Positions 5,856 to 61,046 of a stretch of 61,046 nucleotides of DNA are shown here, piece by piece (position 1 is the stretch's first letter; every line of letters begins with the position of its first letter). This DNA comes from an uncultured Candidatus Saccharibacteria bacterium (GTDB taxonomy: Bacteria > Patescibacteriota > Minisyncoccia > UBA6257 > GWB1-50-10). Location: positions 1 through 61,046 of the forward strand of contig CAZBVS010000001.1 of the NCBI GenBank assembly GCA_964495575.1, read 5' to 3'. The notes beneath the pieces are model-generated. The model was not told where the DNA came from. It made no database searches and worked only from the letters and a program-made list of their open reading frames with translations. The translations under genes were made by a program, and so were the position numbers.

Positions 5856-6737
5856 TTAATTTAGATTACTTAAATCAATAGTGTTACCTGAAACACTTGG
5901 GTTATTTTTCTTCTTATCTTTATCAATCTTTTTATTTTGCTTCTCAGGCTTACTTGCCGCTTCTTTTTGTTTTTGTGCTTCACCACTCTTATCAGGCTGC
6001 TTCCTAGGCTTATTTTTTTGATTAGCGATGTTTATAAAGCTTTTATCATTATCAGAAGAAGCAGGAGTTCTATACTCACTATAATGAACCGTTCTTTTCT
6101 GATCCTTTTTAGGTGTTTGAACCTTTGCAGAAGGACCATCTTTTTCTTGCTTTTCAAAGAAGTCTCCAAATGAAAATGAGAAATCTTTTTTCTGTTTTGG
6201 TCTCTCTTCCTCTCTTTTTTCTTCTTGGTGAATTACAAAAGGGGTCTCTTTATTTTTTTCTTCAGTTTTTTGACTTTCTTCTTTTTGAAATTCTGATTTA
6301 ATAAACTCTTTATCACCTTTTTGTTCCGGCTTTTCTTTGTGTGATATTTCGATGTTTCCAATTTTCTGATCCGTCTTGTGTTTTATGTTGGCTATGTTTG
6401 TATCCGTTTCTGCTACTGGTGAGTAAATCTCATTAAGTTCATCTAAGAACTGAGAGAATATTTTTTTATCTACCTTATCTGAAATTTGTTCAGCAACTTT
6501 TTTATCTATCTCTGTCTCCTTTAAGATTTTTTCATCTAGCTCTTCTTTATGTATAAACCCATATAGCACAAAAGAAACAAGCTTAAACAACTTCTCTGTT
6601 TTTATTTCATTAAGGTGGTGTTCTTTTGCTATCTGTAACAGAGTTTTTCCATACGCCGGAGAATACAAAGCCTTCCGAAGTTCCATCGGCATATTGTCCC
6701 ACCTTCTATCTATTTTGGCTTTTGGATAAGTAATCAT
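5856..6737 (-). CDS. hypothetical protein with structured N-terminal domain and K/E/Q-rich disordered tail
   Basis: Long ORF in operon register; the C-terminal two thirds is low-complexity charged sequence (KQKKDFSF..., KPRKQPDKSGEAQKQKEAASKPEKQNKK). Confidence 0.55.
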   Translation of the reverse strand: MITYPKAKIDRRWDNMPMELRKALYSPAYGKTLLQIAKEHHLNEIKTEKLFKLVSFVLYGFIHKEELDEKILKETEIDKKVAEQISDKVDKKIFSQFLDELNEIYSPVAETDTNIANIKHKTDQKIGNIEISHKEKPEQKGDKEFIKSEFQKEESQKTEEKNKETPFVIHQEEKREEERPKQKKDFSFSFGDFFEKQEKDGPSAKVQTPKKDQKRTVHYSEYRTPASSDNDKSFINIANQKNKPRKQPDKSGEAQKQKEAASKPEKQNKKIDKDKKKNNPSVSGNTIDLSNLN

Positions 6738-6768
6738 ATTGTTTTATTTATGAATGACGAGCCTTTCT

Positions 6769-8748
6769 CTATTTATCTTTAGTTTCCCCTTCTTTGTCTT
6801 TACCACTTTTTTCTTCAGAAGATCCCGACTTGTCCTCTCCAGAGGACCCCTCTTCCGATCCTTCTTTATAATATGTTCCTCCACCACCTTCAAAGTTAGC
6901 GATTACATTCTTAAACCTCTTTAGCCCTTTTTCATCTCCCAATGTTGTAAGAGCTGCTTTGTATTCTGCTTCGAAATTATCTCTTCCTTTGGAGTCTAGC
7001 TTAGGCTCAATGCTGGACACAAGACCTTTATTTGTTTTAGCTATAGCTTTAGCAATCATTTGTGACGCTTCTTCTAATTTATCCTTTCCAATGCCTAACT
7101 TTTCCTTGCCGCTGAATATATCTTTGAGGGGTATGTCCTTCAAATCTTTTTTAAGTAATTTTCCGTAGAATTTTTCAGCCTCTTCATAAAATGTATCCGT
7201 ATCATCATTTTTTAACGCCTCCATCATTTCTAGTGTCATACCCAACTGTTTCTCAATCTTTTTGAAGGCTCCCTTTTCTCCATAATTCTCAAACAATCTT
7301 TTGTTATCCTCGGTAAGATGTTCTTTAGCATTAATTTTATTGATCTTTCCGTCTTTAGACAGACTTTTTAGAAGCTCTTTCTTCTCGGGTCCGGAAGCTC
7401 CTGGTAATTTGGCCAACTTTCTTTCTGTGCTCCAGCCTTTCATTTTCTTTTGGTACTCACTTGCCACCCCTTTCTTACCCTTGTCTTCAAGTGCGGTTAG
7501 CTGTCCCGCCACCCATGAAGCCGCTTTTCTACTAAACTTACCCGTTCGATTACCAGCCATCTCCCTTGCTTTACCAGCCAATGATTTATCACTTTCCTTA
7601 CCTTTCCTCCTTACTGGATAAGTCACAGCCCTCATAGCGTTTCTCTTAGCAAAGCTTGATGCCTTGCCCTTTGCCCAGCCCTTTGCCCAGCCTCCTGCAG
7701 ATTTAGCGATTCCAATTGCTCCTTTTGCTCCGTTGATTCCCATCTTGTCCGCGGCGTATAATCCGGCGAACATTAAAGCTGCAAGGACAATCATTTGAAT
7801 TCCCTGGTTTAATATTGCTCCTAAAGCAGCGTTTGAACTTGCAAAGTTAGCAGCGGCTGAATTAGCAAAATCTGCGTTTTTTATATTCTCTGCTCCCACT
7901 AACGTGAGGTAAATAAAGAATGACACTGCCGGAGCAAAGAAGGTCCATTTCAAAAAACTTTGCCACCAGTTTTGAAACTGGCTTTGTAGTTGGGGGATTA
8001 CCCATGCCAGCCATACTATCGGAGCAAGAACAAGCAAGAAAGTTAATACAACATAGCGAGCTAACAGCATAAAGGCTAAAGCCCCGAACACAATGGTTGT
8101 TAATCCGGTGAGTACTATGGTAAATATTATGTTTGTGACTCCTATAAGCAACGCGGAGCCCACCCCAATGCTCCCTTGGTTGTCTGGATCTACAGCAGGT
8201 ACTTCATTATCACTTGTTCCAATAACAAGTTTTTGAGGATTAAAAGCTCCCGCTATTGCTCCTGAAATTTGATACCCTCCGTTGCCTGGGTTTAAGAAGA
8301 ATTTAGTTAACGTATTTGAGAAACCGATTATGGGTGTAGCAATAGCCAAGCTAAAGTTAACAATTAAAGCCGCCGCAATAAGTTTAGGTAATAGTTTCTT
8401 CACCCCATACTGTTTGAACTGTACTATTGTGGCAAAACCTATAATGATTATTGCCAACACAAAACCCAAGTTTGCTAAATCACGAGTTATTTTCCAACCT
8501 TCTGAAATTAAGGTATTTGAATCATTTAAATTGTTTATATTATATTGCAGCATTACATCTGCTAAACTAGCCATCCAGTTTAGCAATGTACCTATAAAGA
8601 ACCTAAATATCTGAGCTATTACGTTTGTTATGGTAGAAGCAATATTTGCCGCCAAACCTGCGTTAGCAACTAACGGCAATGAAAACACTAATAAAGATAT
8701 TCCTAGTATCTTTAAAAGTTTTTTTCTTTTTTTAATAAAACTTTTCAT
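6769..8748 (-). CDS. TrbL/VirB6-like polytopic T4SS channel protein with long hydrophilic C-terminal domain
   Basis: Signal-like N-terminus, at least 6 long hydrophobic segments across residues about 20-340, then a roughly 300-aa K/E-rich soluble tail. Size, topology and position match VirB6/TrbL components. Confidence 0.6.
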   Translation of the reverse strand: MKSFIKKRKKLLKILGISLLVFSLPLVANAGLAANIASTITNVIAQIFRFFIGTLLNWMASLADVMLQYNINNLNDSNTLISEGWKITRDLANLGFVLAIIIIGFATIVQFKQYGVKKLLPKLIAAALIVNFSLAIATPIIGFSNTLTKFFLNPGNGGYQISGAIAGAFNPQKLVIGTSDNEVPAVDPDNQGSIGVGSALLIGVTNIIFTIVLTGLTTIVFGALAFMLLARYVVLTFLLVLAPIVWLAWVIPQLQSQFQNWWQSFLKWTFFAPAVSFFIYLTLVGAENIKNADFANSAAANFASSNAALGAILNQGIQMIVLAALMFAGLYAADKMGINGAKGAIGIAKSAGGWAKGWAKGKASSFAKRNAMRAVTYPVRRKGKESDKSLAGKAREMAGNRTGKFSRKAASWVAGQLTALEDKGKKGVASEYQKKMKGWSTERKLAKLPGASGPEKKELLKSLSKDGKINKINAKEHLTEDNKRLFENYGEKGAFKKIEKQLGMTLEMMEALKNDDTDTFYEEAEKFYGKLLKKDLKDIPLKDIFSGKEKLGIGKDKLEEASQMIAKAIAKTNKGLVSSIEPKLDSKGRDNFEAEYKAALTTLGDEKGLKRFKNVIANFEGGGGTYYKEGSEEGSSGEDKSGSSEEKSGKDKEGETKDK

Positions 8749-30886: not shown

Positions 30887-30914
30887 ATTCTATTGATCTA
30901 AAATAATTTGTCAA
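30887..30914 (-). promoter_or_regulatory. strong promoter-like element (TTGACA-16-TAGAAT)
   Basis: Read on the minus strand, between the dksA-like terminator and the candidate sRNA. Confidence 0.5.
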
Positions 30915-30931
30915 ATAATTTATCAACAAAT

Positions 30932-30960
30932 AAAAAAATAACCGGCTAGAAAGCCGGTTA
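30932..30960 (-). terminator. intrinsic terminator after the DksA/TraR-like gene
   Basis: taaccggc-6nt-gccggtta followed on the minus strand by a run of 7 T. Confidence 0.7.
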
Positions 30961-30968
30961 TTTAACTT

Positions 30969-31307
30969 TTACTTACCCTTTTTACACTTCTTGCATAATA
31001 CTGAAGCGGGATTAGCTTCCAGCACCTCTTCTTCTATCTCCTGCTCACATTCTTCGCATACTCCGTATGTACCAGCCTTTATTTTCTCTAAAGCTCTATT
31101 TATATCCTCCAGTCTTTCTTCTAGATTCATCTTTACATCAATGTAGTTAGCAAACTCCTCGCTTTCATCTGTTTCTTCATCCCCAGAATCAACGTCATCT
31201 CCAAAATCAAGATTCTTCTTTAAACTTTCTAATCTCTCTTGAACTTCTTCTCTTTCTTCTGATAAATCTTTTTTATACTCCTCTATTTTTTCTTTTGATA
31301 AAGACAT
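30969..31307 (-). CDS. DksA/TraR-family C4 zinc-finger protein
   Basis: Acidic coiled-coil N-terminus and C-terminal CEECEQEI...LCKKC. Confidence 0.75.
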   Translation of the reverse strand: MSLSKEKIEEYKKDLSEEREEVQERLESLKKNLDFGDDVDSGDEETDESEEFANYIDVKMNLEERLEDINRALEKIKAGTYGVCEECEQEIEEEVLEANPASVLCKKCKKGK

Positions 31308-31371
31308 GTTTTTATTTATGTTATTTCTTTATAAATTCTATCACATCTAGGACATCCAGCAAACATATTTC

Positions 31372-31400
31372 TTGCGCTCTATTTAATTACTTCATATAGT
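31372..31400 (+). promoter_or_regulatory. candidate tsaD promoter (TTGCGC-17-TATAGT), -10 box 8 nt from the ATG
   Basis: Hexamers and spacing read directly; there is no SD between the -10 box and the start. Confidence 0.4.
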
Positions 31401-31408
31401 ATAAAGGT

Positions 31409-32446
31409 ATGAAAATATTATCCATAGAAACCTCTTGTGATGAAACTGGTATTTCTTTAGTTAATATTGAAGGAAGTCTTTCATCACTCAAAATAAATAT
31501 ATTAAAAGAATTAGTCGCTACTCAAATAAAGGTTCATCGAGAATATGGCGGCGTAGTTCCTGGTTTAGCAAGAAGAGAACACGAAAAAAACTTACCTATC
31601 TTGTTTGATAAGATAGGTTCTTCAAAATTAAACCCAGACCTTCTTTCTGTTACCGTAGGCCCCGGCCTTGATCCTTGTCTTTGGAGCGGTATAAACTATA
31701 CACAAAAGATTCATAAAGAATGTTTTTCTGATATTCCGCTTATTGGTACAAATCATCTTGAAGGACATCTTTTCAGCTTTGTTTTGGACGATGAATTCAG
31801 AGTGAAAGAAAACAAATATTCGGTAAAAAATATTGATGATAATTTTCCGGCAATAGGGTTAGTGGTAAGTGGAGGGCACACCATAATTATTCACATGCGA
31901 TCTTTAACAGACTGGGAAATTTTAGGCCAAACAAGAGATGATGCTGTAGGGGAAGCTTTTGATAAAGTTGCTAGACTCATTGACCTCCCCTACCCTGGAG
32001 GTCCTAAAATCGAAAAGCTATCCAAGGAACACAACGGAGAAAAACTTGATTTTCCTGAACCAATGATTCATTCCAAAAACTATGACTTTAGCTACTCCGG
32101 TCTCAAAACACACATCCTCTACCACCTAAGAGATAACCCAGATGAGAACAAAGCTGCCATAGCTTACTCCTTCCAGGAATCGGCCTTTGCCCCGCTTGTG
32201 AAAAAAGCAAAAAGAGCTGTCCGAGAATATGATGCCAACTCAATCCTTCTCTCCGGCGGCGTGGCCGCAAACAACACCCTAAAGAACAAACTTAAAGATT
32301 TATCCAACAAACTAAATATTACTTTCAGATCAGCCCCTATTAAATACAACACCGACAACGGAACAATAATTGCCATAGCTTCATATATAAACCAACTCAC
32401 AGACAAAGAATATAAACTAGAAGCCCAACCAAACCTAGGTCTATAA
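31409..32446 (+). CDS. tsaD: tRNA N6-adenosine threonylcarbamoyltransferase TsaD
   Basis: MKILSIETSCDETGISLV, HLEGH, VVSGGHT and LSGGVAAN motifs. Confidence 0.9.
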   Translation: MKILSIETSCDETGISLVNIEGSLSSLKINILKELVATQIKVHREYGGVVPGLARREHEKNLPILFDKIGSSKLNPDLLSVTVGPGLDPCLWSGINYTQKIHKECFSDIPLIGTNHLEGHLFSFVLDDEFRVKENKYSVKNIDDNFPAIGLVVSGGHTIIIHMRSLTDWEILGQTRDDAVGEAFDKVARLIDLPYPGGPKIEKLSKEHNGEKLDFPEPMIHSKNYDFSYSGLKTHILYHLRDNPDENKAAIAYSFQESAFAPLVKKAKRAVREYDANSILLSGGVAANNTLKNKLKDLSNKLNITFRSAPIKYNTDNGTIIAIASYINQLTDKEYKLEAQPNLGL

Positions 32447-32449
32447 TCC

Positions 32450-32478
32450 TTGACACAAGTTTAACGCTAATGTATAAT
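32450..32478 (+). promoter_or_regulatory. consensus sigma70-type promoter (TTGACA-17-TATAAT)
   Basis: Perfect hexamers with 17-nt spacing, starting 4 nt after the tsaD stop. Followed by an 8-bp 5'-UTR hairpin (32504-32527) and SD AAGGAGG (32537-32543). Confidence 0.7.
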
Positions 32479-32549
32479 TAAAGCAGAAACTTGAAAAAAG
32501 GGAAATCCTAACCCTTGAATTAGGATTAATCTAAATAAGGAGGTATGCT

Positions 32550-33155
32550 ATGAATTCCATAGTAAGCCGTGATCTTTCCGTACATCAAGAACACGAACTC
32601 CTGCTCAAGCTTGAACAGGCAGGTCTTAACAGCAAAATGGCTCAAAAAGTTATTGAGTCAAAGAACAACAGGGTTGCTAAGGAGATGATCGAAGTTATAT
32701 CAGATGAGTTAAGTTCGGTCATCACCGTTGAAATAGAGACTAAATCCCTTCTCGATCTAAGAGAAGAGTATGGTACCGGTGAAGGTGGCTTTTACGACAA
32801 CGACTGGTGGCTCAACGAAGAGTTCGCTGAAAGTGTTCCCGAGCCGGGAATCTATGAGGTGAACGTCGAGAAACAGCTTGTCAACATGACTTACGACGAG
32901 CAGGTTGAAGCCATACCTGAAGGATGGGATTTTCCTCATCCGGCAGTTATTGCCCAAGTGATTCTAAAACACCACAAAGAAACTGGAGAAAATCTCTTGA
33001 AAGATTGGTGGACTCTCGCCTCTTTGACTGGTTCGGACGGCCGTCGTGTCCGCGTCGGCTACTTCGATTCCTGCGGTCTCAGCGTTCGCTACGTCCGGGA
33101 CGATATCCGCGTTTCCTATATCGGTGTTGTCACCGCTCGAAAAACAGACAAATAA
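32550..33155 (+). CDS. orphan hypothetical protein encoded by a compositionally foreign (GC-rich) gene
   Basis: 201-aa ORF with a strong SD 6 nt upstream. My hand count gives 37/60 G+C at 33001-33060, versus 15/60 at 31441-31500 in neighbouring tsaD. I recognise no family motif. Confidence 0.7.
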   Translation: MNSIVSRDLSVHQEHELLLKLEQAGLNSKMAQKVIESKNNRVAKEMIEVISDELSSVITVEIETKSLLDLREEYGTGEGGFYDNDWWLNEEFAESVPEPGIYEVNVEKQLVNMTYDEQVEAIPEGWDFPHPAVIAQVILKHHKETGENLLKDWWTLASLTGSDGRRVRVGYFDSCGLSVRYVRDDIRVSYIGVVTARKTDK

Positions 33156-33175
33156 ATTAATTTCAAGGCATATTC

Positions 33176-33208
33176 AAAGCGCTCATATTCCCATATGAGC
33201 GCTTTTTT
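33176..33208 (+). terminator. intrinsic terminator of the GC-rich cassette
   Basis: 13-bp stem aaagcgctcatat/atatgagcgcttt with loop tccc, followed by a T-run. Confidence 0.8.
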
Positions 33209-33211
33209 CAT

Positions 33212-33239
33212 TTGAGAAAATCAGCCATCTTGATAGAAT
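33212..33239 (+). promoter_or_regulatory. candidate valS promoter (TTGAGA-16-TAGAAT), -10 box 7 nt from the ATG
   Basis: Hexamers read directly. This geometry predicts a leaderless or near-leaderless valS mRNA. Confidence 0.4.
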
Positions 33240-33246
33240 AAGACAT

Positions 33247-35421
33247 ATGGAAAAACGTTTTAATCACAACGAAGAAGAAGAGAAAATATACAAGGCCTGG
33301 GAAGAAGCCGGATATTTTTCACCTGAAGGATGTATAAAAGCAGACGTTACCGATAAAGAGGCAGAACCTTTCTCTATGGTTCTCCCTCCTCCTAACGTAA
33401 CCGGGGATCTTCACATGGGTCATGCTGCTATGCTTGTCATCGAAGACATCATGACTAGATATCACAGAATGAATGGCTACCGCACTCTTTGGCTACCCGG
33501 CACAGACCATGCCGCAATTGCTACACAATCAAAAGTAGAATCAAAAATATTTGAAGAACAGAACAAAACCCGTCATGATCTTGGCCGGGATGAGTTTTTA
33601 GAAAAAGTTAATAAGTTTGCCAAGGAAAGCCATGACACAATAATTAACCAGGTAAGAGCCATGGGAGCATCCTTAGACTGGGACAGAGAAGCCTTTACCT
33701 TAGACAAACCAAGAGAGAAGGCAGTAAGGACTGCCTTCAAGAGAATGTATGACGACGGTCTCATATACAGAGGAGACAGAATTGTAAACTGGTGTCCACG
33801 CTGTGGCTCTACCCTTTCTGATGACGAGGTAGAATACAAAGAACGCAATACCAAACTCTATGAATTTAAATACGATAAAAGTTTTCCGTTAACTATTGCC
33901 ACTACTCGTCCTGAAACAAAGTTAGGCGACACAGCCGTGGCTGTTCATCCTGATGATAAACGGTATAAAAAGTACGTAGGTAAAGAATATGATGTAGACT
34001 TCGCTGGTCAAGACCTTCATATAAAGGTAGTGGCTGATCGTAATGTTGATCCTGAATTCGGAACAGGAGCTGTTGGAATTACCCCAGCCCACAGTCATGT
34101 TGACTGGGAAATAGCCGAAAAAAACGATATCCCTAAAATCCAGATTATCGGCGAGGACGGTAAGATGACAGATAAGGCCGGAGACTTCGCTGGCCAGACC
34201 GTTAAGGAGGCTAGAAAAGGAGTTGTAAAATGGCTCAAGGAAAATGATTTAATAACGAAAGAAGAAGATGCTCCTCAAAACTTAAGTATCTGCTATCGAT
34301 GTGATACGCCCGTAGAACCACTTCCAAAGCTTCAGTGGTTCATTGATGTGAATAAAGAGTTTAAAATGAAGCATTCTAAGATAGAAGGAGTAAACAAAGG
34401 AGACAAAACAAGCTTAAAGAAGCTCATGATTACTGTCGTAGAAAATTCCCAGATTGACATCATTCCAGAAAGATTTAAAAAAGTATATTATCATTGGATT
34501 GAAAACTTGAGAGACTGGTGTATATCAAGACAAATCTGGTACGGTCATCGTATTCCTGTTTGGTACAAAGATGACGAAACATATGTCGGTCTTGAAAAAC
34601 CAAAAGAGGAAGGTTGGAAACAGGACCCGGACACTCTAGATACCTGGTTTTCATCAGGCCTGTGGACATTTTCAACCTTAGGTTGGCCTGAAAAAACGGA
34701 AGATCTAAAAACTTACCACCCTACCTCAGTACTAGAAACAGGGTATGATATTCTTTTCTTCTGGGTAGCAAGAATGATTCTTATGAGTACCTATCTTTTA
34801 GGAGAAATACCGTTTGAAGATGTATATCTTCATGGATTAGTTCGTGACGAACAAGGCAGGAAGATGAGTAAGTCCTTAGGCAACGGTATTGATCCTTTAG
34901 AAATGATTGAAAAATATGGAGCAGATGCCACAAGACTCTCATTAATCATAGGAGTTGGTCCAGGAAGTGATATCAATCTTTCTGAAGACAAAGTAAAGGC
35001 ATACCGAAACTTCAGTACTAAAATTTGGAATGTTGCCCGATTCCTTAATATGTCTAAGCCAGAAAATTATAACCAGGAAGAAGCCAAACAGTTTTTAACT
35101 AAAGATGATAAAAAGGTAATTGAAGAAATAAATAAATTCAAAGAAGAGATTACCAAACATTATGAGAAGTATGAGTTTAATCTTGCTGGTGAAAAAACAT
35201 ATGATTATCTCTGGAACGAGTTGGCTAACAAACATCTTGAAAACAATAAAGACCGATTGAAAGGAGATGATCAAGAAAAAGCCAAAGCCGCTTATTATCT
35301 CTTAGAAAAGGTATTGTTTGAGTGCCTTAAAATGCTTCATCCATTTATGCCTTTTGTTACTGAGGCAGTGTATCAAAAGTTAGAGTTGGGAGACAAGATG
35401 TTAATGGTTGAAAGTTGGTAA
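33247..35421 (+). CDS. valS: valine--tRNA ligase (compact form)
   Basis: PPPNVTGDLHMGHA (HIGH) and KMSKSLGN, with the CP1 editing domain. At 724 aa it has only a short C-terminal extension. Confidence 0.9.
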   Translation: MEKRFNHNEEEEKIYKAWEEAGYFSPEGCIKADVTDKEAEPFSMVLPPPNVTGDLHMGHAAMLVIEDIMTRYHRMNGYRTLWLPGTDHAAIATQSKVESKIFEEQNKTRHDLGRDEFLEKVNKFAKESHDTIINQVRAMGASLDWDREAFTLDKPREKAVRTAFKRMYDDGLIYRGDRIVNWCPRCGSTLSDDEVEYKERNTKLYEFKYDKSFPLTIATTRPETKLGDTAVAVHPDDKRYKKYVGKEYDVDFAGQDLHIKVVADRNVDPEFGTGAVGITPAHSHVDWEIAEKNDIPKIQIIGEDGKMTDKAGDFAGQTVKEARKGVVKWLKENDLITKEEDAPQNLSICYRCDTPVEPLPKLQWFIDVNKEFKMKHSKIEGVNKGDKTSLKKLMITVVENSQIDIIPERFKKVYYHWIENLRDWCISRQIWYGHRIPVWYKDDETYVGLEKPKEEGWKQDPDTLDTWFSSGLWTFSTLGWPEKTEDLKTYHPTSVLETGYDILFFWVARMILMSTYLLGEIPFEDVYLHGLVRDEQGRKMSKSLGNGIDPLEMIEKYGADATRLSLIIGVGPGSDINLSEDKVKAYRNFSTKIWNVARFLNMSKPENYNQEEAKQFLTKDDKKVIEEINKFKEEITKHYEKYEFNLAGEKTYDYLWNELANKHLENNKDRLKGDDQEKAKAAYYLLEKVLFECLKMLHPFMPFVTEAVYQKLELGDKMLMVESW

Positions 35422-35450
35422 CAATTATTTAATAAATTATAATTATATAT

Positions 35451-36143
35451 ATGAATGCTTTTACATTAACAGCGGTTGTATTCCTTACGCTTCTACCTGG
35501 CTTAGCCTGGCTTTTTTTCTTTCTTCATGAAGATATTCATCCTGAACCCAAAAGGTTGATTGCCTACACCTTTGGGTTTGGTGTTTTAGCCAGTATCCCG
35601 GTATTTGCTTTTCAGATTGTAGGCCAGTCTCTTATCGCTAAGATATCGGCCGGTTTACCACTTACCATATTATTTCTAGCTTTAGTAGAAGAGATATTTA
35701 AGTTTATAGCTGCTTACTGGGCAGTAGGTAAAAGCCCTGAAATGGATGAACCCATTGATGCCATGGTATATATGATTGTAGCTGCCCTAGGTTTAGCCAC
35801 CATTGAAAACTTTTTTATAATCGCCGGTTTCTTAAAAACAGGTGGTTATCAAATATTTTCAGACTTAACAAGCGTTGTCGTTTTAAGATTCGTTGGAGCT
35901 ACTCTTTTACACGCTCTTTCCTCAGGCCTTCTTGGTTTTTACTGGGCTAAAGGAAAGATGAGAAAGGAAATAAAAAAATATATTTTTGTAGGTCTTTGTG
36001 TGGCTACCCTAGTTCACTTTGTGTTTAACTATCTTATTCTAATATTTCAAAACTTAGATCTTCTTCTTTACCCAAGTTTGTTTTTGATAGGATCAGCCTT
36101 TTTCCTTTTTAAAGATTTTCAGAAATTGAGATTAAAATCGTAA
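35451..36143 (+). CDS. PrsW-family intramembrane metalloprotease
   Basis: Polytopic protein with LVEEIFKFIAA (EExxK) and His-containing helices LLHALSSG and HFVFN. Confidence 0.65.
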   Translation: MNAFTLTAVVFLTLLPGLAWLFFFLHEDIHPEPKRLIAYTFGFGVLASIPVFAFQIVGQSLIAKISAGLPLTILFLALVEEIFKFIAAYWAVGKSPEMDEPIDAMVYMIVAALGLATIENFFIIAGFLKTGGYQIFSDLTSVVVLRFVGATLLHALSSGLLGFYWAKGKMRKEIKKYIFVGLCVATLVHFVFNYLILIFQNLDLLLYPSLFLIGSAFFLFKDFQKLRLKS

Positions 36144-55605: not shown

Positions 55606-55648
55606 CTTTATTTCGTTTTCTTTCGAAATTAGTTTAGAATAATTATAT

Positions 55649-56944
55649 ATGGATAAGAATAAAGTTATTATACTTGCTATACTTGGAAGTTTAGCAGCTT
55701 TAGTTTTGATTTTTGTAGTTGGGTTCTTTTTAAACAGAGGACCAGGTGAAGACTCTATTTATAATACTCAGGCTCAACTTGATGTCTGGGCTGTTTCTGA
55801 TAGAAAGGCAGCTTATGAAAAAGCTATCTCCGAGTTCAACAAAACTTACCCTAACATTACAGTTAACTACCGGCGTTTTGAAAATACCAATGAATACGAA
55901 GAAACCCTCCTTAATTCTTTAGCGGCTGGAGAAGGGCCAGATATTTTTGTCATTAAAAACAGTGATATCTTAAGGAAGGCTAACAAAACATTTCCTGTCC
56001 CGGAATCTCAGTATTCCTTATCAAATTTAAGGAATGATTTTCCTGAGGTAGTTGAACAAGACTTTTATTTCAACAACAAGATTTACGCTCTTCCAGCCTC
56101 TGTTGATACTCTTGCCATGATATATAACAAGAGTCTCTTTAACGAAGCTGCTATAGTTTATCCTGCTAAGAACTGGGAAGAGTTTAAAACTCAGACTAAA
56201 AAACTTACTAAATTCAATGATCAATCTGGCGATGTATCCCGAGCCGGAGCTGCTATAGGAGGTGCAGATAATATTAAGTATTCTTCTGATCTCCTCTCCC
56301 TTCTTATGATGCAGTCTGGGGCAGACATGGTAAGTGATAATTATGACTCAGCTACCTTTAGCTCCGAACCGGGTAGAGAAGCATTAGACTTTTATACTCA
56401 ATTTTCAAACCCTAACGCAGATTTATATACCTGGGATAGCTATCTTTCTCAAGATTTTGAATCGTTTGCCCGGGAAAACAACGCGGTTGTCTTCGGTTAT
56501 TCCACCGATTTAAAAGATTTAAAGGATAGAAATGTGTTTTTAGAGGTGGGCGTTGCCAAAGTACCTCAGATAAAAGAAAACAAAGAAATAGCTATCGCCG
56601 ATTACTTCGGTTACGCAGTTTCTCGACAAACTCGATATCCCACAATAGCTTGGGATTTTGTTAAGGTTCTAACCCTCGACTCTTCTGCTATAAGAAGTTA
56701 TCTTGATAACACGAAAAGACCTCCCGCCCTTAAATCTTTAATCCAGGAGTATAAAAATGATCAGGAACTTGGAGTTTTTGCAAAACAAGCTTTAATTGCC
56801 GAGTCCTGGAGGAAGCCTGATTTTGAGAAGACAGATAAGATTTTTGATCAGATGATAAAGGCAGTGGGAGATGAAGGAAAGGCCTCATACAGGATTTTAA
56901 GAAACGCAGAGGATGAAGTTTCTAATTTATTAAAATCTTTATAA
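55649..56944 (+). CDS. ABC-transporter substrate-binding protein, family 1 (sugar type)
   Basis: N-terminal anchor, size about 430 aa; patterns LDVWAVSD...FNKTYPNITVNY and PDIFVI are typical of SBP_bac_1. Confidence 0.6.
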   Translation: MDKNKVIILAILGSLAALVLIFVVGFFLNRGPGEDSIYNTQAQLDVWAVSDRKAAYEKAISEFNKTYPNITVNYRRFENTNEYEETLLNSLAAGEGPDIFVIKNSDILRKANKTFPVPESQYSLSNLRNDFPEVVEQDFYFNNKIYALPASVDTLAMIYNKSLFNEAAIVYPAKNWEEFKTQTKKLTKFNDQSGDVSRAGAAIGGADNIKYSSDLLSLLMMQSGADMVSDNYDSATFSSEPGREALDFYTQFSNPNADLYTWDSYLSQDFESFARENNAVVFGYSTDLKDLKDRNVFLEVGVAKVPQIKENKEIAIADYFGYAVSRQTRYPTIAWDFVKVLTLDSSAIRSYLDNTKRPPALKSLIQEYKNDQELGVFAKQALIAESWRKPDFEKTDKIFDQMIKAVGDEGKASYRILRNAEDEVSNLLKSL

Positions 56945-56946
56945 CC

Positions 56947-57378
56947 ATGAATAATGTATTAAATATTTTAATAAGCGCTTTTGTTCTTTTATTAGTTGGC
57001 TTTTTTGCTTTTTCTCCGCTAGCGTTTGCTGCTCAGAAAGGTGCCCCCGATAGCGGCTCTATAATCTGGGAGGGGGTAACCTGTAATCAGCAAGGAGAAG
57101 ACCCTTGTGATTTTTGTGACATGATTAAGGTAGTCTCTAATATTGTTAATTTTCTAACCCGGTTAGCATATATAGTGGCCGCCGCTGTAATTGTAGCCGG
57201 GGGAGTGATGATAATGGTAAGTGGGGGTAATGAAAAAAGATTCTCTAAAGGTAAGAGTTTAATTACCAACGCTGTTATAGGTATTGTTATTACCTTAACC
57301 GCTTGGATTATTGTAAATACCCTTTTCCACATCATAACCGGTGATGAACAGTTTATTTGGTCCGAAATAGTGTGTTAG
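56947..57378 (+). CDS. VirB2/TrbC-like T4SS pilin paralogue with Cys-containing N-terminal segment
   Basis: Signal peptide ...PLAFAA, Cys segment CNQQGEDPCDFCDM, then helix-basic loop-helix AAAVIVAGGVMIMVSGGNEKRFSKGKSLITNAVIGIVITLTAWIIV. The protein ends in Cys. Confidence 0.65.
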   Translation: MNNVLNILISAFVLLLVGFFAFSPLAFAAQKGAPDSGSIIWEGVTCNQQGEDPCDFCDMIKVVSNIVNFLTRLAYIVAAAVIVAGGVMIMVSGGNEKRFSKGKSLITNAVIGIVITLTAWIIVNTLFHIITGDEQFIWSEIVC

Positions 57379-57387
57379 AATAAACAT

Positions 57388-57759
57388 ATGAAGAAATTAA
57401 CCTTATTTTTAATAACCTTCTTAGCCTTTACCTTTATCCTTGGAGTGCCTCATGTCCTAGCACAACAAGAAGGCTCCCCTACGGTAGGGTTAACTAACCC
57501 TCTTGAGGAATCAGGGGCTAACACGATAGGGGATGTTTTAACCAGAATTATTGATGGTCTTCAGGTTATCGCTATCCCAATAGCCGGTATTATGGTGTTA
57601 GTAGGTGGTTTTCAGATCCTTTTTGCTGCTGGAGACCCCGAGAAATTTAAGAAAGGTAAAAAAACAATCCTATATACAGTAATAGGTTATGCTATAATAT
57701 TAGTAGCTAACGGAATGGATAAATTAATTAAGGATATTTTGACACATTCCGTAGAATAA
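57388..57759 (+). CDS. VirB2/TrbC-like T4SS pilin paralogue
   Basis: Signal peptide ...PHVLAQ, then AIPIAGIMVLVGGFQILFAAGDPEKFKKGKKTILYTVIGYAIILVANG. Confidence 0.65.
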   Translation: MKKLTLFLITFLAFTFILGVPHVLAQQEGSPTVGLTNPLEESGANTIGDVLTRIIDGLQVIAIPIAGIMVLVGGFQILFAAGDPEKFKKGKKTILYTVIGYAIILVANGMDKLIKDILTHSVE

Positions 57760-59961: not shown

Positions 59962-60043
59962 GCCGGAGTGGTGGAACTGGGATACACGCATGATTTAGGA
60001 TCATGTGCTTTACAGCTTGTGGGTTCAAATCCCACCTCCGGCA
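59962..60043 (+). tRNA. tRNA-Leu(TAG), type II
   Basis: Acceptor gccggag/ctccggc, anticodon stem catga/tcatg with loop ttTAGga, variable arm gctttacagc, T arm gtggg-ttcaaat-cccac. Confidence 0.85.
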
Positions 60044-60092
60044 CAAATTGTTTTTTGAAAATATGAAAGTTACTTGTATACTTGTATTGGAT

Positions 60093-60164
60093 GCGTCCTT
60101 AGCTCAGTGGTAGAGCGCTTGCTCGACACGCAAGAGGTCACAGGTTCAAACCCTGTAGGACGCA
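60093..60164 (+). tRNA. tRNA-Val(GAC)
   Basis: Acceptor gcgtcct/aggacgc, D arm gctc-agtggta-gagc, anticodon stem cttgc/gcaag with loop tcGACac (position 33 reads C), T loop ttcaaac. Confidence 0.8.
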
Positions 60165-60172
60165 CACTTATT

Positions 60173-60245
60173 GGGCCGTTGGCTCAGTTGGTAGAGCGCC
60201 TCCATGGCATGGAGGAGGTCACCGGTTCAAATCCGGTACGGTCCA
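60173..60245 (+). tRNA. tRNA-Ala(GGC)
   Basis: Acceptor gggccgt/acggtcc with the G3:U70 alanine identity pair; anticodon stem cctcc/ggagg with loop atGGCat. Confidence 0.85.
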
Positions 60246-60252
60246 CAAATTT

Positions 60253-60335
60253 GGAGGGGTCGGATAACGGCTATTCCACCGGTCTTGAAAACCGGCGCCC
60301 ATACGGGCTTGAGGGTTCGAATCCCTCCCCCTCCG
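60253..60335 (+). tRNA. tRNA-Ser(TGA), type II
   Basis: Acceptor ggagggg/cccctcc, anticodon stem ccggt/accgg with loop ctTGAaa. The 5' 29 nt are identical to tRNA-Ser(CGA) at 12888. Confidence 0.85.
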
Positions 60336-60345
60336 CAAATAAAAA

Positions 60346-60370
60346 AACAGGCTTTATGCCTGTTATTTTT
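60346..60370. terminator. bidirectional terminator between convergent tRNA genes
   Basis: aacaggc-tttat-gcctgtt flanked by an A-run and a T-run. Confidence 0.7.
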
Positions 60371-60374
60371 ATTG

Positions 60375-60448
60375 TACGCCCGACAGGACTCGAACCTGTA
60401 ACCTTCAGCTCCGCAAGCTGACGCTCTATCCAGTTGAGCTACGGGCGC
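60375..60448 (-). tRNA. tRNA-Arg(GCG)
   Basis: Reverse complement: GCGCCCG-TA-GCTC-AACTGGATA-GAGC-G-TCAGC-ttGCGga-GCTGA-AGGTT-ACAGG-TTCGAGT-CCTGT-CGGGCGT-A. Pair 1:72 is G:U. Confidence 0.8.
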
Positions 60449-60990: not shown

Positions 60991-61046
60991 TGACCCCAAC
61001 CGGATTTGAACCGGTGTTACCAGGATGAAAACCTGGCGTCCTGGAC
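60991..61046 (-). tRNA. tRNA-Glu(TTC), 3' portion; the 5' end lies beyond the window
   Basis: Reverse complement: ...CCAGG-ttTTCat-CCTGG-TAAC-ACCGG-TTCAAAT-CCGGT-TGGGGTC-A. Confidence 0.75.

Follow-up and report, generated by a model that had tools for sequence, protein, structure and literature searches.

The C-type-lectin-like (CLec) variable proteins of diversity-generating retroelements (DGRs), among them Mtd of phage BPP-1, TvpA of Treponema denticola, TaqVP of Thermus aquaticus and the archaeal AvpA, carry their variable repeat (VR) at the extreme C-terminus, where AAY codons of the template become NNY codons in the target gene, and a hairpin follows the VR. A gene with these same features lies between tsaD and valS on contig CAZBVS010000001.1 of an uncultured Candidatus Saccharibacteria bacterium; all coordinates given here without a locus name are positions in the analysed stretch of 61,046 nt (hereafter the window), to which comparisons with other open reading frames (ORFs) are limited. 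The 201-aa protein encoded by this gene is a DGR variable protein, i.e. a DGR target, and belongs to a family of the candidate phyla radiation (CPR)/Patescibacteria for which there is no Pfam model. The same host group harbours the CPR 'clade 2' DGRs (Roux et al. 2021, PMC8144416; Wu et al. 2018, PMC5758913), whose targets likewise show no recognisable transmembrane segments or conserved domains (PMC8144416). Unlike the targets of these DGRs, neither the window copy nor the short forms related to it lie beside a cassette. From Mtd, TvpA, TaqVP and AvpA the window protein differs in its small size, in the lack of a signal peptide or transmembrane segment (there is no hydrophobic segment, the maximum of the 19-residue Kyte-Doolittle profile, KD19, being 0.88), in the lack of a template repeat (TR) or reverse transcriptase (RT) on the contig, and in having neither sequence similarity to solved structures nor a match to the FGE-sulfatase or DUF1566 families of Pfam. 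With a probability that we put at roughly 0.55, the window gene is an orphaned copy, frozen in one variant and still expressed.

A search of 5.8 billion proteins recovered 22 homologues besides the query, two of which have an origin named by the source, namely Patescibacteria/Paceibacterota metagenome-assembled genomes (MAGs), and related loci were obtained from CPR MAGs and metagenomes. Homology to the proteins P0005-P0018 extends over the full length (E 3.5e-23 to 5.8e-11, coverage 96-99%), and an exhaustive profile search returned 2603 clusters (50% identity) at E<=1e-3 and at least 1369 at E<=1e-10; in many of the clusters found by this search the same C-terminal domain is fused to other N-termini. 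The first-pass annotation, made from the sequence of the window, had recognised no family for the protein, a statement that can no longer be upheld. Domain databases are of little help here: Pfam, PHROGs, NCBIfam and PADLOC gave nothing useful for the 201-aa protein (no PADLOC match at E<=1, and PHROGs matches at chance level only, with E>=0.03), and Pfam recognised no domain over the C-terminal fold in 67 diverse family members. The viral contigs scanned contained no family member and gave no support for a phage origin.

The relatives of the window gene include targets that are part of complete DGRs. For comparison, 11 loci from GTDB species genomes and 68 loci from JGI metagenomes were fetched, most of them long enough to be tested, and a long-form protein was counted as testable if it was a distinct protein longer than 215 aa whose gene had 700 nt or more of DNA downstream. 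Downstream of the gene for P0008 in locus L002 come a minus-strand bAvd gene and an RVT_1 reverse transcriptase, and the intergenic region contains a copy of the last ~120 nt of the target (VR 6650-6770, TR 7162-7280) with 17 differences, all of them at TR adenines. By its TR, its VR and the restriction of their differences to adenines, this locus is a diversity-generating retroelement. The same target-TR-Avd-RT layout was found in L013, L014, L015-17, L034, L041, L068, L077 and others, the order in these cassettes being target, TR, Avd (-) and RT (+) with a single adjacent target; when RTs of the family were used as queries against the relatives' loci, E values went down to 1e-149. The TRs typically lie 370-520 nt past the stop codon and show 0-1 non-adenine mismatches to the VR (P0008, L013, L014, L034, L041, L068 and L077, among others). 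Altogether, 24 of the 35 testable long-form proteins are linked to a TR, an Avd or an RT located about 0.4-1.5 kb downstream. Two further observations were made at these loci. At the contig end of L001 a partial second paralogue (5992-6732 and 7174-7344) is located ~440 nt downstream of P0007, and judged from this arrangement tandem family copies may be present in some genomes. On the CPR contig of L041 a LOOT RNA (RF03000, 80 bits) is found on the minus strand at 7878-7994, ~2.7 kb downstream of the DGR cassette.

The C-terminus of the family is hypervariable at discrete positions in the alignment of homologues, and in the window gene the corresponding stretch bears the marks of adenine mutagenesis. 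The last 40 codons (33027-33146) share the reading frame of a consensus built from 12 unique TRs of the family and need no gap in the alignment; they differ from it at 17 of 27 adenine positions, but at only 19 of 78 non-adenine positions (Fisher p=4e-4). All 11 AAY codons have given way to other NNY codons (CGT, CGC, TAC, TGC, AGC, CGC, TAC, ATC, GTT, TAT and others), while the scaffold codons CGT GTC .. GTC GGC .. TTC GAT .. GGT CTC .. CGC .. ATC GGT are identical at the nucleotide level. The non-adenine differences are mostly third-position exchanges between C and T, as would be expected if the gene's own TR had diverged from the consensus. Within the closest subfamily (the window copy, L007, L031 and L099, which are 54-58% identical) it is the same codons that vary, and adenine mutagenesis has therefore acted within this subfamily. 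By comparison, the VRs of two other short forms, L009 and L051, are degenerated and contain deletions and A-rich codons. The window VR also holds three imperfect 18-nt repeats (TCCGCGTCGGCTACTTCG and similar) at 33049-33123 with a spacing of 27-30 nt, which mirror the strand motifs RVGYF, SVRYV and IRVSYI of the variable region.

No machinery for such mutagenesis was found in the window. A tblastn search of the 61-kb contig with two family RTs gave a best E of 2.5, the corresponding search for Avd a best E of 4.5, and in an adenine-tolerant ungapped scan of both strands for a TR even the best candidates had 38 or more non-adenine mismatches over 161 nt, scans with 60 nt finding no TR either and returning A-rich noise only. 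As RT, Avd and TR were sought on the contig and not found, the window copy is assigned only to the CPR DGR target family as defined by homology and is not a complete DGR locus. A cassette located elsewhere in the genome, consisting of TR, Avd and RT and still rewriting the VR in trans, is the most serious competitor of an orphaned copy, and we regard it as a genuine possibility, though one with clearly less than even chances. Besides the empty contig, the behaviour of the relatives speaks against such a remote cassette: no local TR or RT is present at any of the testable short forms resembling the window gene (five to six, comprising the window copy, L005, L007, L009, L051 and L099), so that not a single one of them is DGR-linked. 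An 18-mer search of the MAG containing the closest homologue recovered only the VR itself and no TR copy, although this MAG may be incomplete or its TR may have adenines in the stretch searched. In public genomes, an A-free 19-mer from the 3' end of the window VR gave 10 matches attributable to chance, in high-GC genomes; the one match in CPR (L029) is not VR-like. CPR DGRs, moreover, usually have a single adjacent target, remote targets being confined to another lineage (PMC5758913).

Two features of the gene itself point in the same direction. A scaffold tryptophan, whose TGG codon cannot be mutated by a DGR, is kept in all 21 linked copies (21/21) but has become CGG (Arg) in the window; it is also lost in L085 and, judged by eye, in L009 and L051, all of which are unlinked copies. 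The second feature concerns the DNA downstream of the stop codon, where most family loci (e.g. L013, L033, L068, L007, L031, L099) contain 3-5 CTTGA(A/G) motifs, ~9-10 nt apart, within the first ~70 nt. This array encloses a small covarying hairpin (GAGGA-CTTGT-TCCTC) and is followed by a terminator-like hairpin (GAGCCTTCGGCG...GGAGGCTC), and it may be a target-recognition or regulatory element of the DGR. The background is 0.12 motifs per 76 nt; 3-5 of them are present in almost every linked type-1 locus as well as in L007, L031, L099, L005 and L009, compared with none in the window (33156-33175). Finally, the VR is identical in a second assembly, which differs by one single nucleotide polymorphism in valS; this is weak evidence against ongoing diversification.

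Several observations have to be set against the view that the gene is frozen. The contig represents only 61 kb of the genome, and a TR and an RT could be located elsewhere. Remote targets are within the reach of DGRs, the documented distance from the RT exceeding 100 kb in some cases, and avd, TR and brt work in trans (PMC5758913); off-contig and remote targets are, by their own statement, missed by metagenome surveys (PMC8144416). As in the remote DGR targets of Treponema denticola and Legionella, the VR-bearing gene of the window is far from any RT, an arrangement compatible with action in trans; to be recognised as a remote target, however, a gene needs a cognate TR that is part of its own genome and differs at adenines only, whereas the window gene was read on the 61-kb contig. 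The VR is still maximally depleted of adenine in a genome of 36% GC and has kept its NNY codons, neither the ORF nor its strong expression signals show any damage, and the downstream hairpin is long and suitably placed, all of which fits recent or current activity. Downstream hairpins of DGR targets have been described as GC-rich stems of 7-10 bp with a 4-nt GRNA loop, 4-34 bp past the VR (PMC3240598); the window hairpin, with its 13-bp stem and 4-nt loop ~33 nt past the end of the VR, is within this range of distances, but its stem composition (5 of 13 pairs are G-C) and its sense-strand loop TCCC differ from the phage consensus, and it doubles as a terminator. The absence of the CTTGA array, a putative DGR element, proves nothing. 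In addition, 11 long-form relatives have no local TR, and for their VRs there are TRs on other contigs that fit with only 1-5 non-adenine mismatches, so that the family does contain unlinked copies compatible with a known TR. A final caution applies to the CLec fold: the best Foldseek E values are 0.03-0.3, none of them significant, and TM-scores of 0.45-0.61 were reached only for small adhesin tip domains.

Loss of the retroelement could also have left a functionless remnant, an old DGR target that is drifting like a pseudogene. The missing scaffold tryptophan, the missing 3' element and the degenerated VRs of the short forms L009 and L051 would suit such a decay, but the window ORF is full-length and contains all residues conserved in the N-terminal part of the family, its C-terminal domain is predicted with confidence throughout by AlphaFold2 (AF2), the perfect promoter, the SD (Shine-Dalgarno) sequence and the terminator are retained, and the VR has not relaxed towards the composition of the AT-rich genome. 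We thus consider decay improbable. For an orphaned but expressed copy, which we consider most likely, the course of events would be as follows. In the relatives, the pair of Avd and RT copies the TR into cDNA, with random bases opposite adenines, and the cDNA replaces the VR, whereby AAY codons are converted to NNY codons; the window VR shows the outcome of this mutagenesis, and the GC peak of the gene is its result. The window copy would have been recombined into the slot between tsaD and valS together with its own leader and SD sequence but without the 3' element of the family, and its constitutive expression from the consensus promoter would now yield a binding protein whose specificity is fixed. 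More tentatively, the window copy and its relatives of ~200 aa might form a DGR-independent branch, decommissioned after diversification and cut off from TR, Avd and RT (and here also from the CTTGA array), whose members reside in housekeeping slots as constitutive binders of fixed specificity. The features of the window copy are compiled in Table 1.

Table 1. Sequence features of the VR-bearing gene and its surroundings between tsaD and valS (positions in the window)
Feature	Position	Strand	Description
Lineage-specific insert	32447-33227	+	whole cassette; not homologous to the same slot in L100
Sigma-70-type promoter	32450-32478	+	TTGACA 32450-32455, 17-nt spacer, TATAAT 32473-32478; consensus match 12/12
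5' untranslated region (UTR) hairpin	32504-32527	+	AATCCTAA 32504-32511 / TTAGGATT 32520-32527; 8 bp, 8-nt loop; from inverted-repeat search
SD sequence and start codon	32537-32552	+	AAGGAGG 32537-32543, 6-nt spacer TATGCT, ATG 32550
201-aa ORF	32550-33155	+	stand-alone short-form homologue of DGR variable proteins
N-terminal module	32568-32690	+	residues 7-47, RDLSVHQEHELLLKLEQAGLNSKMAQKVIESKNNRVAKEMI; three predicted helices
C-terminal domain	32715-33152	+	residues 56-201, ~146 aa; predicted alpha/beta fold
Variable repeat (VR)	33030-33143	+	last ~38 codons; adenine-depleted, rich in NNY codons; source of the GC peak
Intrinsic terminator	33176-33210	+	13-bp stem 33176-33188/33193-33205, 4-nt loop, T-run

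The high GC content of the ORF relative to its surroundings, as noticed in the first-pass annotation, is real: GC is 0.469 and GC at third codon positions (GC3) 0.490, compared with means of 0.359 (sd 0.043) and 0.30 (sd 0.059) for 57 window ORFs, which makes it the most GC-rich of the protein-coding ORFs in the window. The sole 'ORF' with a higher value, a mechanical call at 60074-60421, is GC-rich because a tRNA gene cluster is located there (59962-60448 and 60991-61046, with Leu, Val, Ala and Ser on the plus strand, Arg on the minus strand and another, incomplete tRNA where the contig ends). Two alternate-frame ORFs that had been listed as spurious, 32924-33160 (+) and 32757-32957 (-), do exist and overlap the 201-aa ORF. 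The GC maximum is sharply local: 33030-33089 contains 40 G+C in 60 nt and only 4 A, and four or fewer A occur in just 0.08% of the 60-nt windows on either strand. Within the VR the GC content is 0.59 and the proportion of A 0.137, compared with 0.314 A in the remainder of the ORF. The sharp peak at the 3' end is the adenine-depleted variable repeat.

Outside the VR, GC (0.444) and GC3 (0.465) are still about 2-3 sd above the window mean. We examined this excess in all fetched loci with enough flanking sequence (L001-L096) and in the window gene, and found that at nearly every family locus the target gene exceeds its flanks by 10-20 GC points with the VR excluded. In 11 loci with a complete cassette the target has a mean GC content of 0.51, compared with 0.41 in the remainder of the locus, and the RT (0.36) and Avd (0.38) genes beside it resemble the host in GC. 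The remaining excess is a trait of the target gene throughout the family and in hosts of many GC contents; the high GC content therefore cannot date a transfer and is no evidence of a recent one. This bears on the original interpretation of the locus as a horizontally acquired single-gene module unrelated to DGRs, with a role in defence or anti-defence or as a toxin, and with a GC content derived from a foreign donor. Such an origin would agree with the polymorphism of the slot among close relatives, with an SD style atypical for the genome and with the elevated GC of the non-VR part, but it is hardly reconcilable with the homology over the full length (E 1e-11 to 1e-23) to proteins whose TR/VR pairs have been verified, with the restriction of the GC excess to the target gene across the family, and with the absence of family members from the viral contigs scanned; nor was there a match in PADLOC, Pfam or NCBIfam that would speak for one of the proposed roles. 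We regard it as highly improbable.

The flanking genes were correctly named at first pass as tsaD and valS, both products being NCBIfam equivalogs above cut-off (TsaD with 313 bits, the cut-off being 296). The cassette that occupies the slot between them is specific to the lineage. The closest relative found is L100, a Paceibacterota MAG whose TsaD shows 89% amino acid identity; here blastn detects homology to 30903-32446 (83%) and 33228-35500 (86%) of the window and none in between; homology ends exactly at the tsaD stop and restarts at 33228 with the valS promoter. The slot of L100 (2243-2856 of DATGCT010000006.1) contains instead a TTGACA-17-TATTAT promoter, an unrelated AT-rich ORF for a hydrophobic protein of 149 aa (2318-2767) and a terminator. 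In the more distant relatives L101, L103 and L104, valS directly follows tsaD with no gene between them. The cassette is self-contained, as had been stated at first pass, and the slot is polymorphic. The closest homologue of the protein, in L007, is encoded just downstream of the end of a tsaD-like gene and followed by a PaaX-like gene, while the homologues in L099 and L031 have yet other neighbours. Small genes seem to have settled repeatedly in the tsaD-valS slot. Between the window and L100, the terminator stems (AAGCGCTCATAT versus AAGAGCTTATAT) are identical at 10 of 12 positions, with matching changes in the 3' arm, and judged from this comparison the window terminator may have been supplied by the resident slot. 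Short direct repeats at the two ends of the insert, for which the first-pass annotation had suggested looking, were not found in the form of a convincing target-site duplication. A direct repeat of 17 nt (32399-32415 and 33144-33160, 14/17 identical) connects the 3' ends of tsaD and the cassette ORF, away from the homology breakpoints, and is probably due to chance. An assembly chimera was also considered, and it is ruled out by an independent Logan assembly (L006) with the same tsaD-ORF-valS junctions.

The expression signals listed in Table 1 confirm the first-pass description of hairpin, SD sequence with its spacer, ORF and terminator, as well as that of a perfect promoter, except that the -35 box begins 3 nt and not 4 nt past the tsaD stop, which ends at 32446. 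This promoter is the sole perfect match to TTGACA-17-TATAAT in the 61-kb window; shuffled sequence contains on average 0.76 matches with up to one mismatch. The contrast in style between the cassette and the other genes, which had also been pointed out before, is borne out by the window as a whole. An SD-like motif precedes only 5 of 55 window ORFs, and the SD sequence of the cassette is thus atypical for the genome, whereas -10 boxes abut many start codons; valS, for instance, has TTGAGA-16-TAGAAT, which ends 7 nt upstream of its start codon. Many window genes show a TAnAAT box at a distance of 6-8 nt from the ATG (33234-33249 for valS, 57376-57390, 55635-55651, 35438-35453). In this genome, which is largely devoid of SD sequences, the boxes suggest that translation is initiated on leaderless or A-rich-leader transcripts. 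An Rfam scan of the cassette gave nothing at gathering score. Below the threshold, the UTR hairpin together with the SD sequence (32499-32552, plus strand) resembles the DUF2815 RNA motif (26.8 versus 41.2 bits, E 0.013), probably a chance match owing to the generic combination of a hairpin with an SD sequence.

With respect to the family, the SD sequence is anything but unusual. The SD sequence with its spacer, AGGAGGTRTGCN-ATG, hardly varies among the homologues and is invariant in all 15 aligned leaders (15/15), the window included; the SD-based signal of the cassette is inherited with the gene family. Near-consensus TTGACA promoters are located upstream of many homologues, often with a TG-extended -10 box. 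Many long-form genes have a leader of ~110-130 nt with a long hairpin (ATGAGACGAGC...GCTCGTCTCAT) whose apical pairs covary, followed by GAGATAAGCCGTAAA, by a short hairpin (TCCGA-ACGAA-TCGGA) ~10 nt before the SD sequence, and by AGGAGGTRTGCN-ATG; this leader was seen in L002, L011, L033, L037, L041, L045, L054, L061-63, L068, L084, L085, L089 and others, and no matching family was found for it in Rfam. The window (32479-32549) keeps only the 3' part of the leader. According to the leader alignment, its UTR hairpin occupies the position of the short second hairpin, ~9-10 nt upstream of the SD sequence, with a different sequence.

For the whole protein, AF2 with the family alignment reached a predicted local distance difference test score (pLDDT) of 85, with values above 90 for residues 60-200 and of ~70 for the N-terminal helices (11-23, 28-36, 41-54); the C-terminal domain alone was modelled with a pLDDT of 91.7 and a predicted TM-score (pTM) of 0.88. 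Structural neighbours found by Foldseek in PDB and BFVD include EgtB, SenA, FGE, the C-terminal domain of Legionella Lcl (probability 0.84), the tip domain of Bdellovibrio Bd2740 (0.77), viral C-type lectins and the DGR proteins TvpA and Mtd. The nearest PDB neighbours thus comprise TvpA, Mtd and FGE/EgtB domains, although below significance, and the C-terminal domain is, on the basis of the model, probably C-type-lectin-like. Searches of PDB with the profiles A1 and A2 returned chance matches only (Cas8, cyclohexanone monooxygenase). Unrecognised CPR targets have been predicted to be new CLec variants (PMC8144416), a prediction that the modelled fold of the window protein fits without proving it. 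Among the roles proposed at first pass, that of a host-interaction factor is the best-fitting guess, DGR variable proteins being ligand-binding; by analogy, the window protein would bind a ligand and might act in cell-cell or host contact.

The N-terminal part of the protein has a history of its own. Its 40 residues are near-invariant (RxLSVHQEHELLLKLEQAGL..AQKVIESKGN.LA) in proteins that are otherwise less than 30% identical, and the module is found in DGR targets whose VR-bearing C-terminal domains are of three or more different kinds. The ~40-aa module (LSVHxEHELLLKLExAGL...) was seen on unrelated C-termini of the CVLCFCD type (L015-L017, L095) and of the VFGR type (L088, P0019-P0023), and further fusions to unrelated C-termini occur in L057, L070, L089, L090, L093 and L096. 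The CVLCFCD-type C-terminus of L015-17 has its own clean TR/VR pair, and conversely P0004 (L099) combines a C-terminal domain of the window type with a different N-terminus. These sequences point to a shuffling of domains between DGR targets.

Novelty, if any, may be found at the level of the family, in the shared module, the leader RNA, the CTTGA array, the GC excess of the target and the stand-alone short forms. Leader RNA, CTTGA array, N-terminal module and a GC excess limited to the target could represent new determinants of the expression and recognition of DGR targets in CPR bacteria, whose targets form a very large family with shared non-coding elements and without a Pfam model. For the reading of genomes, it follows from the window gene that a 3' end which stands out from an AT-rich genome by sharply raised GC and scarce adenine is a footprint of adenine mutagenesis by a DGR and does not have to be taken for foreign DNA. 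A C-terminal stretch of ~110 nt that is rich in NNY codons and depleted of A can be used as a scan rule to flag DGR targets whose retroelement is located off the contig. If the stand-alone copies are indeed frozen, they would constitute a record of hypervariable binders becoming ordinary resident genes in episymbiotic bacteria.

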